Source: Sarea resinae (Eukaryota). Taken from it: DNA of 55,027 nt. Shown in pieces: positions 32,642 to 39,974 of the stretch. The stretch's first letter is position 1, and every line of letters starts with the position of its first letter. Position numbers and translations under genes: made by a program. Location: NCBI GenBank assembly GCA_026026165.1, contig JAPEUD010000053.1, forward strand, positions 124,001-179,027, in the 5' to 3' direction. A model generated the notes under the pieces. It was given only the letters and a program-made list of their open reading frames with translations, ran no database searches and had not been told where the DNA came from.

Positions 32642-33869
32642 CGGCAATTTGTCTCGACCGCCTCTCTTTGTCCGCGCGCCACATTGCCGACTGGCTGATT
32701 GGCTGGCTGACGCCTCGACCCTCTCTCTGCCTGGTAGAGCCTGGATCTTGGACCAGGCCGCAGAGGACTGAAAAGTTAGACGGTGCGATTTGTTGACCTT
32801 TTACACTCCTTGTCATCACGACTACAATTGCAAACATAGGTGAATGACGGTCACATGATTTAGGATCCGTACCAAATTCAACATGTTTCGATACTGATAT
32901 TGACTGACCATCAGATCATCGTCGTCGTTATTATCCCGTCCTGCAACATTGTTCGCTCCTCGTCCCTTGTCGTCTCGTGTCGTTTCGGCTTCTTTGGCGT
33001 CGACTCAGCTCCCGTCTGTCTTCATTCATATTCAGTAGGCCGGCTGTTCGTGTGAGACCTCGTCAATTTCCATTTTTCCCAGCCTACCCACCACGCTCGC
33101 CGTTAACCACCCTCCCAACCGCCCTGTCGCCATCCTCCTCCATGCCATTAACCACCCGAAACAGCCGACATCGACGAAATGAAAACATACAATGTCGTGA
33201 AGTCAATGAAACCATCCGCCCACCGTCATCCCTTCCTTCATTCATTCCTCATAGAAAGAAAAAAAGAAGAAAGAGAGAAAAAAAGAACAGAGCGCGATGA
33301 CACCCTTCCTCCCACTTCCTTCCCCTTTCTCTCATTCCCCCCTTCCGAAATACCAAAGACGAAAAAAAAACACATGGAACCAAAAGACCAAAAGACCAAA
33401 TCAAAAAAAAACCGCGATCACACAGCCGGGGCAAGCCGCCCCCCCCCTCATGGCCTGTGATCCGTTCGGCGATAGCCGTGTTCCTAGATGAATTTGCCTA
33501 TTCTCTTTTTTTCTTTCCTCTTTTCGTCTCCTTTCTTTCTAAGAGAATAGGAATTGAAGAATGGAAATCGAAGAGGGAAAAGGCAAAGCAAGGTCTTCTT
33601 TCTCTGACGTCTCTCTCTCTGTCTCCCTCTCTCTCTCTCTCTCTCTTTCTTTCTTTGTTGATAGGGGAATTAGAAATATCTATCTATCTATCTCTTCATA
33701 CGGGTGGGTCTACGATGTAGCCTGTATCAGTAAAGGAAAGGAGAGGAAAGGAAAGAGAGGAGAAGGTGGCGCAAGACTAAGAGAGGGACGTTCGTTGGGA
33801 CCATGTACATTTCCTTTTTTTTATCTTTGGTTCTGTTCTGGTCTTAGTGTAAGTCTTAGTCTGAATCTT

Positions 33870-35245
33870 GTATGAATTATAATTCTTCTTCTTCTTCTTC
33901 TTCTTCTTCTTCTCTTCTCTTCTCTTAGATGTTTAGTCCAAGGAAAGCTGAGCAGCGCAAAATGAGGCGGGGAAAATTTAGGCAAGGGAAAGCCTTAGGC
34001 AGCAGAGGGGGAGAGAACAGGTGCTAAAGAAGAGAGAAATAGAGAGAGAAGAGAGAAGGAAGAAAGGAAAAAAAGAAGGTATTAGAGTCTATAAGAATAA
34101 ACAGGTAGATAGACAGATAGATTTGTAAGTAGCTAGCTAAACAGCATCTACTCTACATCGACTCTATATCTACATCTACTTTATCTATATCTATATCTAC
34201 GTCTCTAGAAAATAATCAAGAAAAAAAAAGAAGAAGAAGAAAAGGATTAAGTCGGAAAACAGTGTTTTCTTTGTTTTGTTTTCTGTTTTCTGGTTTTTTT
34301 TCTCTCTATTTATCTTTCTACCTCTCTCTCTCTCTCTCTATATCTGTGTCACTTTCTGATTTTCAAGTAGAGATAGAGGTACAGAGTAGAGGTATAGAAG
34401 AGTAGAGTGCAGAGTAGAGTAATTAGAGGAAGTAGGTAGAGTAAGAAGTTTAAGTAGACGACTACTACTACAAAGCTATGATATTATTACCTTATATATT
34501 ATAACAACAACAACTACAACAATAAAAACAATAACATCTATATATATTACATACGTATATATTCCTAAACACCTAAACACCTAAACACCTAAACACCTAA
34601 ACACCTAAACACCTAAACACCTAAACACCTAAACACGTACCTATATATATATCTATATATATACAGAGGTAATATAATGTCGTATCTATTATAAATGCAA
34701 TCAATCAGATTGAATCTAATTACAAGGACTGATAAGAAATACTAATGCTAATACTAAGAAGAAGAATAGTAAAGAGAAGAGAGAGAGAAGAGAGAGAAGA
34801 GAGAGAGAGAGAGCGGAAAAGAGATAGAAGTAGCAGATACAGGAGTAGATAAACAAGCTAATCACCTACCTAGTCCCTCAATACCAGTACACACACACAC
34901 ACACATATATATATATACATACATATCAACCAAAATCCTTGCACTCTTTACCTAAGTAGCCATCGACGTATCTTCCTTCCCAACTAGCTTCCTTACCTAG
35001 TAGCTACCTACCTTATCAAACAGGTAAACCTCCCCCGCAATCGAATTCGCCCGACTAGTTTCGCATCGGTTCTGCAATCCGGCTATGATGGATTGAGGAT
35101 CGTGATAGGAGGGATCGAGAGATAGATGTACTTGGAAAGGTAATAGAGGTTTGGATGTATAGATGTGTATATAGATATCGATATAGATATGTAGAGATAC
35201 GATTGAAGGGGGAGAGGAAAAGAGAAAAGAGAAAGACGGAGCTGA
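33870..35245. other. AT-rich low-complexity tract with mixed microsatellites and RIP-like TpA excess
   Basis: No ORFs from 33876 to 35082; (CTT)n, (AG)n, (TA)n and (CA)n runs; many TAG/CTA/TATA trinucleotides by eye. Confidence 0.7.
34564..34635. repeat. Perfect octamer tandem repeat (CCTAAACA)9 = (TGTTTAGG)9
   Basis: Nine exact copies counted. Confidence 0.95.
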
Positions 35246-37702
35246 CTAGAAGCGCTCTCGGTCTCCGGAAGAGCGGACAGTCCTGCCATTGGACGCCGAT
35301 ACCACTAGCTTCCTGTCGTGGGAGATAGCCACGACTGTAACACTAGCCGTATGACCCTCCAACGTTTGGGCTCCAGCTGTTCCTGCGTCCCAGAGCCTGA
35401 CATTGTTATCATCGGACCCTGATGCCACAACCTTACCGTCCCCAGAGACAGCTACGGCGGGAACACTATCAGTATGGCCATACAGCGTGTTCAACGCTGT
35501 ACCCGTCGTCAGGTCCCATCGTCGAACAGTCTTATCCCATGATGCTGATACCACTAGCTTGTTATCACAAGAGATAGCTATGCCTCTGATAGGGAGCGTG
35601 TGTCCGTCAAGTGTTCGTAGCACCGCGTTCCACTCGCTGGGCACCCTCGGTATTTCATGTATGAAACGGGATATCTGGCTTTGGAAGCAGATGCGACCCT
35701 AGGCTGTTTCCCGGTGCAAGGTCAAGAGCGGAAGAATATGTTTGCAGAGGCGCCTCTTCAACGATAGGACGGCAATAGAGAATGAATCGCTGAGCGTCCT
35801 GAATAAAAGCAAGGAGACGGGGACTGTCCTGAGTCTGGGTTCTCGGGTTAATTGAGGAATGACTCGAATTTGGGCTTCACTCACTGCCACCATAAGTTTC
35901 AATGAAGCTATTGCGTGGGCCGCTTCCAGAGTGACTCTCATGAAGCTCAGAGCTTCAAGCCAATGAAGCAGATGCTTCCGCAAAAATTGATGCACAGGCC
36001 CTTCGTCGAGAAGCATAGCGTTCTCGCTCATGTCATTACTGCTTAGTTCAACATGCTGAACCCAATATTGGCAGGCGTATCGCAGTTCTGGAGGTAGCTG
36101 GTCTGCCACGGGCCCGCCTTGAGCCCCTCCCGCAAGGGTACCTGGTGCTTCCAGGTTACATACATCTTGTCCGAGATGCTCGGACATGAGCTGAATACAA
36201 GCATCCGCGATATTACCGTGTGCCTTGGTCTCGTCCACCCAAAAACGTCGATCATGACACCTCTGCTTGCTATGGAGAAATTCACGAAATGAAGGGTGGC
36301 GCACTCCGACAGGATCCCCTGCCCAGTCGGGAACATCCAAAACAGAATGGAGATGCCGTAGCCTCAAATGTACTGTCGTAACATTCACCGATAGTAGCTT
36401 GGAGATGCTCATAGCAGAGAGAGGTTTGAAGGCAGTGACGAGAGTTCCAATGATGTGTCTAAAAAGGGCAGCAAGCTGCTCCGTATCTTGGCTAGTCTTG
36501 ACATCCCTGAACGAATATTTCAGTATCTGAGAATACATTTCGTCAAGGTCTCTGGTTGGAGATTCGTCGGTGATCATCATATCAAAGGCATTTCTTGGCG
36601 AGGAACCATCCTTGCTCTTGCTCAGAATACAAAGGTCAAGAAGGTCGTCAGCCGGCCATTGATTGCTTCCTTTCTCGATAAATGCGCAGATTGTGGCCGC
36701 ATACATGAACCAACCCTGAGCTTTCTCAACGAGGAGTTTGATTTTGTCATCGCCTGGCCAGCTCAATGGCATTGGATACTCCAATGTCTCCCGGACTTTA
36801 TGTAATCTGTGAATAAAGAAACTCGAAATATCATTGTTGACAATAGTCGGCGAGATTTGATCAAGGGCATATTCCAGGTGCCAAACCCCTGGCATATCAC
36901 AAAAGCCAAGACGAACCGGGAGCTCCGGTCTACTAGTGACGAATATGCGCAACCGAATTGGTCCAATCAGTCTGGATTCAGCCAAGAGCTGGAGGATCAT
37001 CTTGACGTCTTTGTCGTTCTCGCACTCGTCCAACGCGTCGATTACAAGGATTAGTGGCGATCGGCATGAATCAGCCATCAAGCTGGAAAGTGGCTGAAGG
37101 ATAAGAAGCTTCCATTGTTCGGCAAGGCTCCGGTCAGATATATCGGTGTGCTTGGATGCCACTGTGCGGATACGTTCTTCCAGTGAAGATGATATACTCG
37201 CCAACTGCATAGCAATAGTGGTGAAGAACTTTTCCGTGTGGCTTCGATCGACAGTTCCTCTAGAGAAGAAAAAACTGGCTCCAAGGCGATTCTGGTCATA
37301 GTATTTCCGCGCTATTGTGCGTGCGATAGTGGACTTCCCTGCGCCTGCTGAGCCGTGCAACCAGAAAATGCATCTTTCATCTTGTCCCTCAGCCCATCTC
37401 ATGATCTCATTGCGGACTTCTGATCGAGTGTTGCTGTAGCAAAGAGGAACATGCTGTCGGATGGCCGCGCCAAAAGACGCCTGGGGAGTACATGGTAGCT
37501 CCTGGAGCGGGCCTTGTTCTAATCAACGCAATTAGCACTCTTAATTCATCTCTTCCCTTCCTGACAGCAGCTGACTGGTAATGAACGTATGTCCATTGTG
37601 AACCCTATTATCATGACCGCTGATCCGATGCCCTTGCCATTGATCCTCAGACCATGTCAGAGGGCGAGATTGGGTTAGCATCGGATCGTTGGGATATGCC
37701 AT
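35246..37702 (-). pseudogene. NACHT-WD40 NLR (NWD2/HET-E-like) with N-terminal amyloid-like motif; frameshifted and truncated in the WD40 region as assembled
   Basis: Exon 1 37702-37576; intron 37575-37519 (GTCAGC..GCTAAT..TAG); exon 2 37518-35885 with Walker A GSAGAGKS, LGASFFF, Walker B LVIDALDEC, FVTSRPE, HPSFREFL, LHWLEALS; intron 35884-35835; exon 3 has a 1-nt frameshift at ~35699-35696 and then about 2.7 WD40 repeats ending at 35246. Confidence 0.85.
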
Positions 37703-38006
37703 CGACGAATATGGCGGTTACGAAAGGAACTGGCACTCTCGACATTGGTGTGATGTCTCTATCAGTGCTGGTGGAGAGGGCATTTGGAGAATATTGCACT
37801 GGATCTTGAGTGGACTTCCCAACATGGTCGTTTCGGCTGAACCAAACGAGGCTGCATATTCAGTCTCGGTCGTGCCGCAGGCCTACATTAATAGTAGCGA
37901 ATTCCCTGTATATATCATCATCACATCTTGTCGTCTTGGCCAGAAACATGACCCTTGCGGGCCCTTTTTGCCTTTGCAGTGCTCGGCTTGGATACACTGC
38001 CGAGAG
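37703..38006. promoter_or_regulatory. Probable bidirectional promoter shared by the NLR and the HET-S-like gene
   Basis: 304 bp between divergent ATGs at 37702 (-) and 38007 (+); inferred from arrangement only. Confidence 0.55.
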
Positions 38007-38861
38007 ATGACAGATCCGTTCGGTATTGTCCCTGGCGCTTTTAGTATCGCTGCGGCCTTCACTACCTGCGTCGACTGCTTCGAGTACGTTCAACTCGGGC
38101 GGCATCTCGGACGAGACTTCCGGAGATACCAGCTCACGCTCAACTGCGCCCGGCTCCGTCTTTCGCGATGGGGACAGGCCGTCGATATCTACAACGACCC
38201 AAATCTCGGCAATCCAAGGGCAACCCGGACGGAGCTCCAGACCGCGCAGAATACCTTGTTTCAGATCCTCGTTCTGTTCGCAGACTCGGAAGCGATCTCG
38301 AAAAGTGACCAAGTGAACATGATGGCTGCTGAGGATGTTAACATTGATCCCGCTGGAGATATGGACTCCAAGCTCCTCGCAATCAATAGGAAAATGAGAC
38401 TGCTGGCGATGAAACGTCGGAAGGGCAGTAGTCTCTTGCACACCACGAGGTGGGCGCTTTATCACCGCACCCAACTCAAAGATCTCGTCGCAAATATAAT
38501 CCGATTGATTGATCATCTTGAGTATCTTTTCCCAGGAGGAACCTCTGAATCAGAGCTCGTGAGGCAGGAGATTGCACAACTTGCAGAAGGGCAGGACAAA
38601 CAGACGCTCGCGCTTGTTGAGGATGCTTCGCAGGATGTGGACAGCTTGCTTCAGAAAACGATCAGAGACGCCCGCACGGGCCATCAATATTCGAATATCC
38701 AGGTCCGAGGTCAAGCTCATAATGGAGATTCGTTTAGTGATGGATGGGCCGGGAATGCAACAGGAGGATTTCATATATATGACGGCATAGTAGTGGAAAC
38801 AGGTTCGAGGGCTCTGAATGGAAATAAATATAGGGGAAAGGATTTCTGGGATTCGAGTTAG
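38007..38861 (+). CDS. het-S: HET-S-like protein: HeLo pore-forming domain plus two-repeat prion-forming domain, 284 aa
   Basis: MTDPFGIVPGAFSIAAAFTTCVDCFEYVQLGRH..RLRLSRWGQAV closely parallels the Podospora HET-S N-terminus; C-terminal pseudo-repeats end in GNKYRGKDFWD (compare HET-s GNEYGGKGFWD). Intronless. Confidence 0.93.
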   Translation: MTDPFGIVPGAFSIAAAFTTCVDCFEYVQLGRHLGRDFRRYQLTLNCARLRLSRWGQAVDIYNDPNLGNPRATRTELQTAQNTLFQILVLFADSEAISKSDQVNMMAAEDVNIDPAGDMDSKLLAINRKMRLLAMKRRKGSSLLHTTRWALYHRTQLKDLVANIIRLIDHLEYLFPGGTSESELVRQEIAQLAEGQDKQTLALVEDASQDVDSLLQKTIRDARTGHQYSNIQVRGQAHNGDSFSDGWAGNATGGFHIYDGIVVETGSRALNGNKYRGKDFWDSS

Positions 38862-39580
38862 CCATGAGTTGAGGCGATCTGTATGTAGTCTGTAATTTCA
38901 CCGACACGCTCCTCAGGCGGCTTCTTCGTGAAGATTAGCCAGCTCTTGGGGGTTATCAGGGTAGGTTAGAGTGTACAAAGATTCACTCCATTCCATTCCC
39001 ATGAAGCCAACGCGAATCGACAAAGCCACAAGACAACAGTCACGGGAAATTCGATCGCTTGATCGATGGGTACTTGATCAATTGATAGAACAAGGCAGTT
39101 TTTTAATATAGTGACTATACACTAGCGGCGCTAACGAAAGTATCCTGCGCCATGCATACCCCAAATCATGCCCTATTCAACTCCGCTCAACTCCAAGCCA
39201 AAATCCGTGTGGCTAAACCGAGTAGGTTCTTTTCTTCCCTTCCTGTTCTTCGTATCCTCTGCTTTCAAAGAGAGAGGAGCCAGAAAAGGAGAAACGGAAA
39301 AAGCGACCTTTTGAAAGGGAAAAATTACAAGAAAGACACAGGCCCCAAACAAGCCAAAGCCAATCCGGCCTGTTCCTGATACCAATGCAGTAGAGTAATC
39401 AAACAGACTACCAGCCAAACTACCAAAGCTCCGACTTCCCAACCAGTCAATCAGTCGACCAACGTAGAAACCCAACTCCCAGGACCCCATGACGCAAGCC
39501 TACCTACTCCATTCGCTTGGTAATTCATTCGTTAACGATATAGTCGAGAAAAGGCTCCGTATGAATAACATCTCGCCCAC

Positions 39581-39846
39581 CCATCCATCCATCAGAAGGT
39601 TCAACCCGGGGACATTGTGGGCCGGGAAAAGGCCCAACAGTCAACCCGGGGTCCCTCCTGACGAATGGATGGATTCATTCATGTGCGAAAGCGAGAGTAA
39701 TGCCAAGGAGACAAGAAAAGAGCGGGCACAAGCTATCTATCCATCCAACCATCCACCCATCCATCAGGAGGTTCAACCCGGGGACATTGTGGGCCGAGAA
39801 ATGGCCCAACAGTCAAACCCGGGGTACCTCCTGATGGATAGATGGA
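39581..39846 (-). repeat. Two tandem copies (39581-39672, 39752-39846) of a ~93-nt imperfect inverted repeat; candidate structured RNA element
   Basis: Shared core GGTTCAACCCGGGGACATTGTGGGCC..GGCCCAACAGTCAA.CCCGGGG; outer stems of 19 and 21 bp. Confidence 0.85.
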
Positions 39847-39974
39847 CGGCTTCGGAAGATCAAGTATGACTGCGGAAACGACAGACTTGAGAGGCGGACG
39901 CGGAAGCAGACGAAAGGATTGAGAGAATGTGAAGCTGCTCCAATTGTTGTCCCGCGAACCGGCTCGTCGTTCAA

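Follow-up and report, generated by a model that had tools for sequence, protein, structure and literature searches.

Introduction

The closest described system to the locus analysed here is the NWD2/HET-S pair of Podospora anserina. As described in passages of PMC3321046 and PMC4344463, a HeLo effector with two pseudo-repeats adjoins the divergently oriented gene of a NACHT-WD40 NOD-like receptor (NLR), which carries a further copy of the repeat at its N terminus. We analysed a stretch of 55,027 nucleotides (nt) from Sarea resinae (assembly GCA_026026165.1, contig JAPEUD010000053.1, positions 124,001 to 179,027), which is called the window throughout this paper. As in the NWD2/HET-S system, a HeLo effector with two C-terminal repeats (R1 and R2) was found beside a divergent NACHT-WD40 gene with a putative N-terminal motif of the r0 type (R0). 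An earlier sequence-only reading had placed R0 on a short, cryptic first exon of the NLR gene. Overall, we hold it for probable that the gene of a NACHT-WD40 NLR of the NWD2 type does begin with this 127-nt exon, which carries a single, divergent r0 motif closest to the HET-s-related amyloid motif (HRAM) class 3, cognate to a HET-S homologue encoded 304 base pairs (bp) away, and that the receptor is damaged.

The same principle, an N-terminal amyloid motif of an NLR which templates an effector encoded in the same cluster, applies to PNT1/HELLP with the PP motif and to het-eN/sesA/sesB with the sigma motif. Both differ from the window pair in motif family and in effector and repeat domains, and are likened to it by description, not by sequence. 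For PNT1, a passage of PMC7885112 gives an intron of 54 bp, which occupies nt 95-148 of the open reading frame (ORF), right behind the short motif-bearing start. For het-eN, a passage of PMC3321046 reports an overlooked 5' intron which had hidden the motif. With these two introns in print, a motif-bearing first exon has precedents.

Results and Discussion

The First Exon of the NLR Gene

The start of the NLR gene comprises the following features:

37576..37702, minus strand: NLR exon 1, 127 nt (42 codons plus 1 nt), ATG at 37702
37519..37575, minus strand: predicted NLR intron 1, 57 nt, phase 1, GTCAGC...TGCTAAT...TAG
37583..37645, minus strand: R0 motif, residues D20-F40, with G37 (position 19) at 37594-37592 and N36 at position 18
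37703..38006, no strand: divergent intergenic region between the NLR and effector ATGs, 304 bp

Read on the minus strand from 37702 to 37576, exon 1 runs from ATG to ACC A and translates into MAYPNDPMLTQSRPLTWSEDQWQGHRISGHDNRVHNGHTFIT. Re-translation reproduced both the coordinates and the 42 residues of the sequence-only reading exactly, with the ATG opening the exon. An in-frame stop codon is located 5 codons upstream of this ATG, and start codon, exon ORF and splice signals were found intact. The predicted intron 1 contains the sequence TGCTAAT 14 nt before the acceptor and ends with TAG; excising its 57 nt carries the frame of exon 1 on into the NACHT ORF, so that the claimed in-frame splicing to the NACHT region is well borne out as a prediction. 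A word search with the 42 residues found a single protein, P0123, labelled as hypothetical protein of a Sarea resinae assembly (class Sareomycetes). This public model of 765 amino acids opens with the same 42 residues, continues with ...HTFITKQGPLQELPC and thus has exactly the same junction; it is a predicted gene model, not based on transcripts.

The exon is hidden by an ORF size cutoff because the ORF around it comprises only 58 codons from stop to stop. The sequence-only reading had called the exon cryptic; as P0123 already includes it, this term does not apply. Independently of P0123, exon 2 has no usable start of its own and needs one upstream. Its earliest methionine is located 17 residues ahead of the Walker A motif, and relatives of exon 2 align from query residue 2-8 on.

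The Body of the Receptor Gene Is Damaged

Downstream of intron 1 the NLR gene was found composed of:

35885..37518, minus strand: NLR exon 2, linker PLQELP plus NACHT/NPHP3_N nucleoside triphosphatase region
35835..35884, minus strand: predicted NLR intron 2, 50 nt, GTGAGT...CAG, as in P0123, junction ...LKLMVATQDSPRLL
35695..35711, minus strand: frameshift zone between the ...APGNSL frame (stop at 35655) and the WD40 frame RICFQSQISRFIHEIPRVPSEW
35249..35644, minus strand: no more than three WD40 repeats, the last of them truncated (WD40 2.6e-29 in 3 stretches), stop at 35246-35248

Exon 2 matched the domains NPHP3_N (9e-33) and NACHT (2e-9), and 19,474 relatives were found at E<=0.001. The WD40 frame opens at 35698 and differs from the frame ending with ...APGNSL. 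The public model P0123 spans this zone by a 52-nt "intron" (35698-35647), which deletes approximately 17 conserved residues. These residues are present in 4 aligned homologues, and the WD40 frame still codes for collinear ones. The break near 35700 was read as a frameshift, which the 52-nt intron of P0123 hides. No further WD40 similarity was detected within the window, and homologues such as P0141 run on with many more repeats. Contigs assembled independently from a public sequencing run were identical to the window at every base between 34935 and 38900, and their even depth of approximately 350 speaks against a repeat collapse or an error of assembly; the window itself was probably derived from this run, and these contigs are not an independent sample. 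A complete NLR combines a NACHT domain with a full WD40 or other repeat sensor. Here the NACHT domain is present, followed by a frameshift and three WD40 repeats. The receptor gene is damaged, a point absent from the sequence-only reading, and since the sensor domain is lost, the allele is probably no longer responsive to a ligand. Any decay would be recent, because both long ORFs (607 codons for NACHT, 150 codons for WD40) are still open.

The best surviving alternative takes the exon and the effector as described here and the NLR as intact in its annotated form of 765 amino acids; the 52-nt segment would be spliced out as a true intron, and the WD40 end with its three repeats would suffice or act together with a partner. 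In agreement with it, P0123 is an open product, the NACHT and WD40 ORFs are both free of stops, and the bridging segment opens with GT and closes with AG. However, removal of the 52 nt costs the residues kept by the 4 homologues, for which the other frame provides collinear coding, the donor GTCGCA is weak, and no CTRAY-like branch site was seen on reading by eye. Moreover, three WD40 repeats with the third interrupted compare with many more in homologues such as P0141, and a WD40 propeller normally needs approximately seven blades. We consider an intact receptor unlikely and retain the damaged NLR as the preferred reading.

According to a passage of PMC4344463, every wild het-s strain carries nwd2 as a pseudogene without activity. 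Like the P. anserina het-s haplotype, the window combines an intact effector of the prion-domain type with a disrupted NLR. Unlike in the nwd2 pseudogene, the damage consists of a frameshift and the loss of WD40 repeats, not of a transposon scar.

Directly behind the shortened NLR gene approximately 2 kb of AT-rich DNA (33000-35245) were observed, with a GC content of 0.33-0.40 at 33500-35000. This stretch, which may represent a degraded repeat or ordinary intergenic DNA, is full of microsatellites; among them, CCTAAACA recurs in nine exact copies at 34564-34636.

The Effector Is a HET-S Homologue With Two Pseudo-Repeats

On the opposite strand the neighbouring gene showed the following organization:

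38007..38861, plus strand: effector gene, 284 amino acids plus stop, HET-S ("small s protein") homologue
38022..38588, plus strand: HeLo pore-forming domain, amino acids 6-194 (PF14479, E 2.1e-42)
38676..38735, plus strand: R1, amino acids 224-243, TGHQYSNIQVRGQAHNGDSF, with H226 at position 3, N239 at 18 and G240 at 19
38769..38831, plus strand: R2, amino acids 255-275, FHIYDGIVVETGSRALNGNKY, with H256 at position 3, N271 at 18 and G272 at 19
38832..38858, plus strand: C-terminal aromatic tail RGKDFWDSS (relatives end with ...GGKDFWDD)

Effector residues 1-216 matched the solved HeLo structures of the small s protein (2wvn_A, 2wvo_A and 2wvq_A, E 2.4e-41 to 4e-37). Using a cutoff of E<=0.001, 246 relatives were found, several of them called "small s protein", with 58-59% identity for the best non-self relatives. 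Like HET-S/s, the window effector thus combines a HeLo domain matching solved structures with the conserved glycine, a basic position 15 and the aromatic tail. It keeps the residues G-R-H at a site where the solved small s protein chains have G-R-P in one case and G-R-H in another. The histidine at this site presumably marks the toxic HET-S form; since it is kept, the window effector is without sign of the detoxified het-s type.

The NACHT gene adjoins the effector gene on the opposite strand, and both are divergently oriented. In a set of 80 metagenome loci the same arrangement of a NACHT gene beside a HeLo gene was present in 22 of the 23 loci which showed a NACHT relative.

For the repeats, profiles were built from effector relatives, with 88 of 119 sequences parsed for r1 and 116 of 119 for r2. 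Among 1620 six-frame ORFs of the window, the r1 profile matched R1 at 2.8e-11 and the r2 profile R2 at 1.9e-8. The C-termini of the relatives contain two repeats, which start with G/S-H-x-Y and end with G-D/N-x-Y/F, followed by G-G-K-D-F-W-D-D. In 80 of the 88 parsed relatives r1 lacks two residues in comparison to r2, and the same holds true for R1 compared to R2 in the window. G240 and G272 were invariant across 32 aligned sequences, and the loop between R1 and R2 comprises approximately 11 amino acids. The effector C terminus shows two pseudo-repeats with the invariant Gly 19, a loop and an aromatic tail. This agrees with the effector layout in PMC4518210, which lists pseudo-repeats of approximately 21 amino acids, a loop of 6-18 amino acids and an aromatic tail.

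According to the same paper, the numbering of the motif rests on the invariant Gly 19, with hydrophobic residues at 5, 8, 10, 16 and 18 and R/K at 15; at position 3, HRAM1 motifs have N, HRAM2 motifs Q and HRAM3 motifs H. R1 and R2 of the window carry His at position 3, and their positions 5, 8, 10 and 16 are hydrophobic or aromatic. Following these text criteria of Daskalov, Dyrka, Saupe 2015 (PMC4518210), R1 and R2 were assigned as putative HRAM3 motifs. As described there for HRAM3, they show H at 3 and G at 19, and the adjacent NLR carries one putative r0. Approximately 120 close relatives with the same repeat pattern were observed, including proteins from Pseudogymnoascus, for which Table 1 of PMC4518210 gives six HRAM3 proteins. 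Unlike HET-S, which belongs to HRAM1, the window has His instead of Asn at position 3 and Asn instead of a hydrophobic residue at position 18, and, measured against R2, its R1 lacks two residues and its R0 has one more. The Pfam model HET-s_218-289 (PF11558) gave no match to the effector C terminus at E<=1, so that this mark of HRAM1 is absent, and no solved prion-domain entry matched the effector at E<=0.01. The missing PF11558 match fits the remark in PMC4518210 that only 38 of 155 HRAM proteins match this model.

Two observations concern the surroundings of the effector gene. Its open frame reaches 363 nt 5' of the true ATG (37644-38006, plus strand), spans the intergenic region and runs antisense to the R0 exon; one collection contains a call of 345 amino acids (P0003) which uses an upstream ATG, and the relatives begin at the position equal to 38007. 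Downstream of the effector gene an element of approximately 100 bp is present in two copies (39577-39673 and 39749-39849), which are 87-91% alike and 172 bp apart. With their inverted-repeat ends they look like miniature transposable elements.

R0 in Comparison to the r0 Motifs of Relatives

Motifs of the r0 type were found in NACHT relatives with a short N terminus (P0133, P0157 and P0171) and in NLRs encoded divergently from HeLo genes in the metagenome loci. Their r0 is followed by a P-L-x-x-L-P linker at similar spacing, as in the window. The His-rich R0 agrees with the r0 composition, rich in His and Ser, given in the consulted part of PMC4518210.

For the second half of the motif, a glycine-anchored profile of 12 relatives' r0 was employed; it excluded L013, in which Arg stands in place of the glycine, L021, whose contig contains no start, and L024, which is interrupted by a stop. 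With this profile the window residues R-V-H-N-G-H-T-F (positions 15-22) ranked 6 of 86,323 six-frame positions. Longer versions ranked R0 12 of 81,484 (positions 15-24) and 32 of 76,951 (positions 13-24). Using BLOSUM-averaged scoring, R0 reached rank 2 of 86,323 and rank 1 of 81,484, and R1 and R2 ranked alongside. Since prior interest was confined to approximately 30 positions of the NLR N terminus, chance is an unlikely source of ranks of this kind. The second half of R0 is thus well kept (R15, V16, H17, G19, T21, F22).

Pairwise comparisons of exon 1 with the r0 exons of relatives stood out in 6 of 12 cases, in which few of 2000 shuffles reached the score (L001 2, L022 4, L007 20, L020 57, P0133 70, L078 109). 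The alignment of exon 1 with L078 needs one gap of a single residue and brings together W/Y at 5, I-S-G at 10-12 and R-V-H-x-G at 15-19.

A further likeness concerns core position 18, at which Asn was found in R0, R1 and R2 of the window. Among the effector relatives, Asn 18 was present in 8 of 112 r1 and 9 of 112 r2 repeats, and in both repeats of 8 proteins (7 of 119 sequences were unparsed). With Asn 18 in all three rungs, the window differs from most HRAM3 relatives by a minority state. Among the 12 r0 motifs of relatives, Asn 18 occurred solely in L020, and r2 of the L020 effector has Asn 18 too. PMC4518210 reports that r0 evolves in concert with its cognate r1 and r2, with in-register covariance at position 18; the shared Asn 18 of R0, R1 and R2 matches this concerted evolution.

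The Intron Behind the Motif Has a Fixed Position

The donor of intron 1 is located 19 nt past the first base of the G19 codon. Of 11 analysed loci with an r0-like ORF, 8 (L001, L002, L007, L013, L022, L023, L062 and L076) showed a GT donor at exactly this distance and an intron of 40-64 nt restoring the frame. The remaining three were L078, for which no frame-restoring intron was found, L021, in which the r0 ORF is cut by the contig or the pattern, and L024, which contains stops. In L020 the sequence GTATGT at +19 represents a candidate donor. Unlike the window, the HRAM1-type NLRs of L041 and L071 have a continuous ORF and no intron behind the motif. For L052, L054/L055, L059 and L065 an intron would be needed behind another N-terminal motif, most plausibly in phase 2, with several candidates per locus; for L060 the phase is ambiguous. 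The words "intron" and "exon" are absent from the main text of PMC4518210, and a limited full-text search of the literature found no discussion of a conserved intron position behind the motif.

The sequence-only reading had linked the separate exon to a modular exchange of signalling motifs. The location of the motif on an exon of its own is conserved and has the precedents named above. Passage of motif exons between NLR genes is possible, but not supported by the introns of the other motif classes.

Some of these loci displayed peculiarities of their own. The NLRs of L052, L054, L055, L059 and L065 stand beside more distant HeLo-type genes, with the N-terminal motif Q-P-V-S/N-F...I-A-I/V-Q/E-x-G. 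L024 apparently represents a decayed pair, with stop codons in the r0 ORF and in the first repeat of the effector. In L013 the start of the r0-bearing NLR lies approximately 3 kb from the HeLo gene, not a few hundred bp, with AT-rich, stop-filled DNA in between, and Arg replaces the conserved glycine; the promoter region shared by both genes may have received an insertion here.

Weighing the Assignment of R0

Several results weigh against the assignment of exon 1 as an r0 exon. The R0 ORF went unreported with hidden Markov models (HMMs) of the relatives' r1 and r2 up to E<=100. The same was true up to E<=1000 for an r0 HMM from 11 relatives, which found R1 of the window at 6.8e-4. Compared with the last 70 amino acids of the effector, exon 1 scored 32 (shuffles 21.6 +/- 4.2), a score reached by 135 of 5000 shuffles, and the pairwise likeness of R0 and effector taken alone is modest. 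With an ungapped r0 profile of 24 residues R0 reached rank 163 of 55,598. The other 6 of the 12 comparisons with relatives' r0 exons were no better than shuffles (of 2000, L002 651, L023 234, L062 1282, L076 343, P0157 1307, P0171 1025). In the L078-based register, position 3 of R0 is D instead of H/N/Q, by which R0 also departs from HRAM3, and core position 8 is His. One extra residue is inserted between positions 12 and 15, and the local aligner chose another register for exon 1 versus R1, which differed from that of the sequence-only reading as well, leaving the register of the first half unsettled. The loci which share the intron form approximately three related groups and amount to perhaps three or four independent confirmations, not 8. 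Among the public sequencing runs only a DNA run matches the locus and no RNA run is listed, so introns 1 and 2 are predictions. Finally, R0 may have begun to drift, should the NLR be a pseudogene.

These points are set against the public gene model, the family architecture, the intron position and Asn 18, which together support the claim of an R0-type amyloid motif cognate to R1 and R2 of the neighbour as a reading of the sequence. Exon 1 is very probably a true r0 exon, with an uncertain register in its first half. The alignment of R0, R1 and R2 in the sequence-only reading is supported for the second half by profile ranks and Asn 18, and needs insertions or deletions in the first half.

R0 could also be the relic of a true r0 which lost folding and templating after the insertion and substitutions, with ancestry as its only tie to R1 and R2. 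The silence of the HMMs, D at 3, His at core 8, the extra arc residue and the damaged receptor gene fit such a relic. Its second half is nevertheless well kept, position 18 carries the unusual Asn of the effector itself, pointing to recent co-evolution over free drift, and start codon, exon ORF and splice signals are intact, which makes a mere relic improbable in our view. That the ORF upstream of NACHT contains no amyloid motif and resembles R1 and R2 by a short coincidental match would agree with the shuffle result and the unreported R0, but is most improbable given the same intron position relative to the conserved glycine in 8 related loci, the top ranks of the second half among approximately 80,000 positions, the linker spacing shared with relatives, Asn 18 common to all three motifs and the need of the NACHT ORF for an upstream start.

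Proposed Mechanism and Significance

In the preferred reading, a cognate r0 exon of a now damaged NLR, gene structure, effector family, comparative support for r0 and NLR damage were observed, and we infer amyloid formation, templating and cell death from the NWD2/HET-S system as outlined in parts of PMC4344463. By homology, oligomerisation of the NLR would bring the N-terminal r0 segments together. These segments would stack into a nucleus resembling a beta-solenoid amyloid, which would template R1 and R2 of the effector into the same fold. The HeLo domain, released or refolded, would then permeabilise the membrane, with cell death as the outcome. The Asn residues at core position 18 of R0, R1 and R2 would line up as one continuous Asn ladder. 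A complex prediction with two R0 exon peptides and effector residues 215-284 scored 0.00 compared to a mark of 0.34; controls were not run, and no inference was drawn from it.

More speculatively, and with rather little confidence, the phase-1 intron 19 nt past the glycine codon across distant lineages could trace the passage of a motif exon between NLRs, and Asn 18 together with the enlarged arc of R0 may define a private HRAM3 sub-channel. If so, the polar Asn ladder would lie inside the solenoid core in the manner of Gln 18 in HRAM4, and would be a cross-seeding barrier versus ordinary HRAM3 pairs with Thr or Ile at position 18, and would insulate paralogous NLR-effector pairs from each other.

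In our literature search no paper was found which ties Sarea resinae to systems of the HET-S/NWD2 type. The locus probably adds one more amyloid signalling pair of this type, a known system, and leaves the general picture of fungal amyloid signalling unchanged. For annotation, the possibility of a short first exon which bears the motif, followed by an intron whose position relative to the conserved glycine is fixed, has to be built into gene finders and motif scans. The agreement of all three motifs in Asn 18 would represent a clean natural case of co-variation between receptor and effector, and the decaying receptor beside an intact HET-S-like effector recalls the nwd2 pseudogene of het-s strains.

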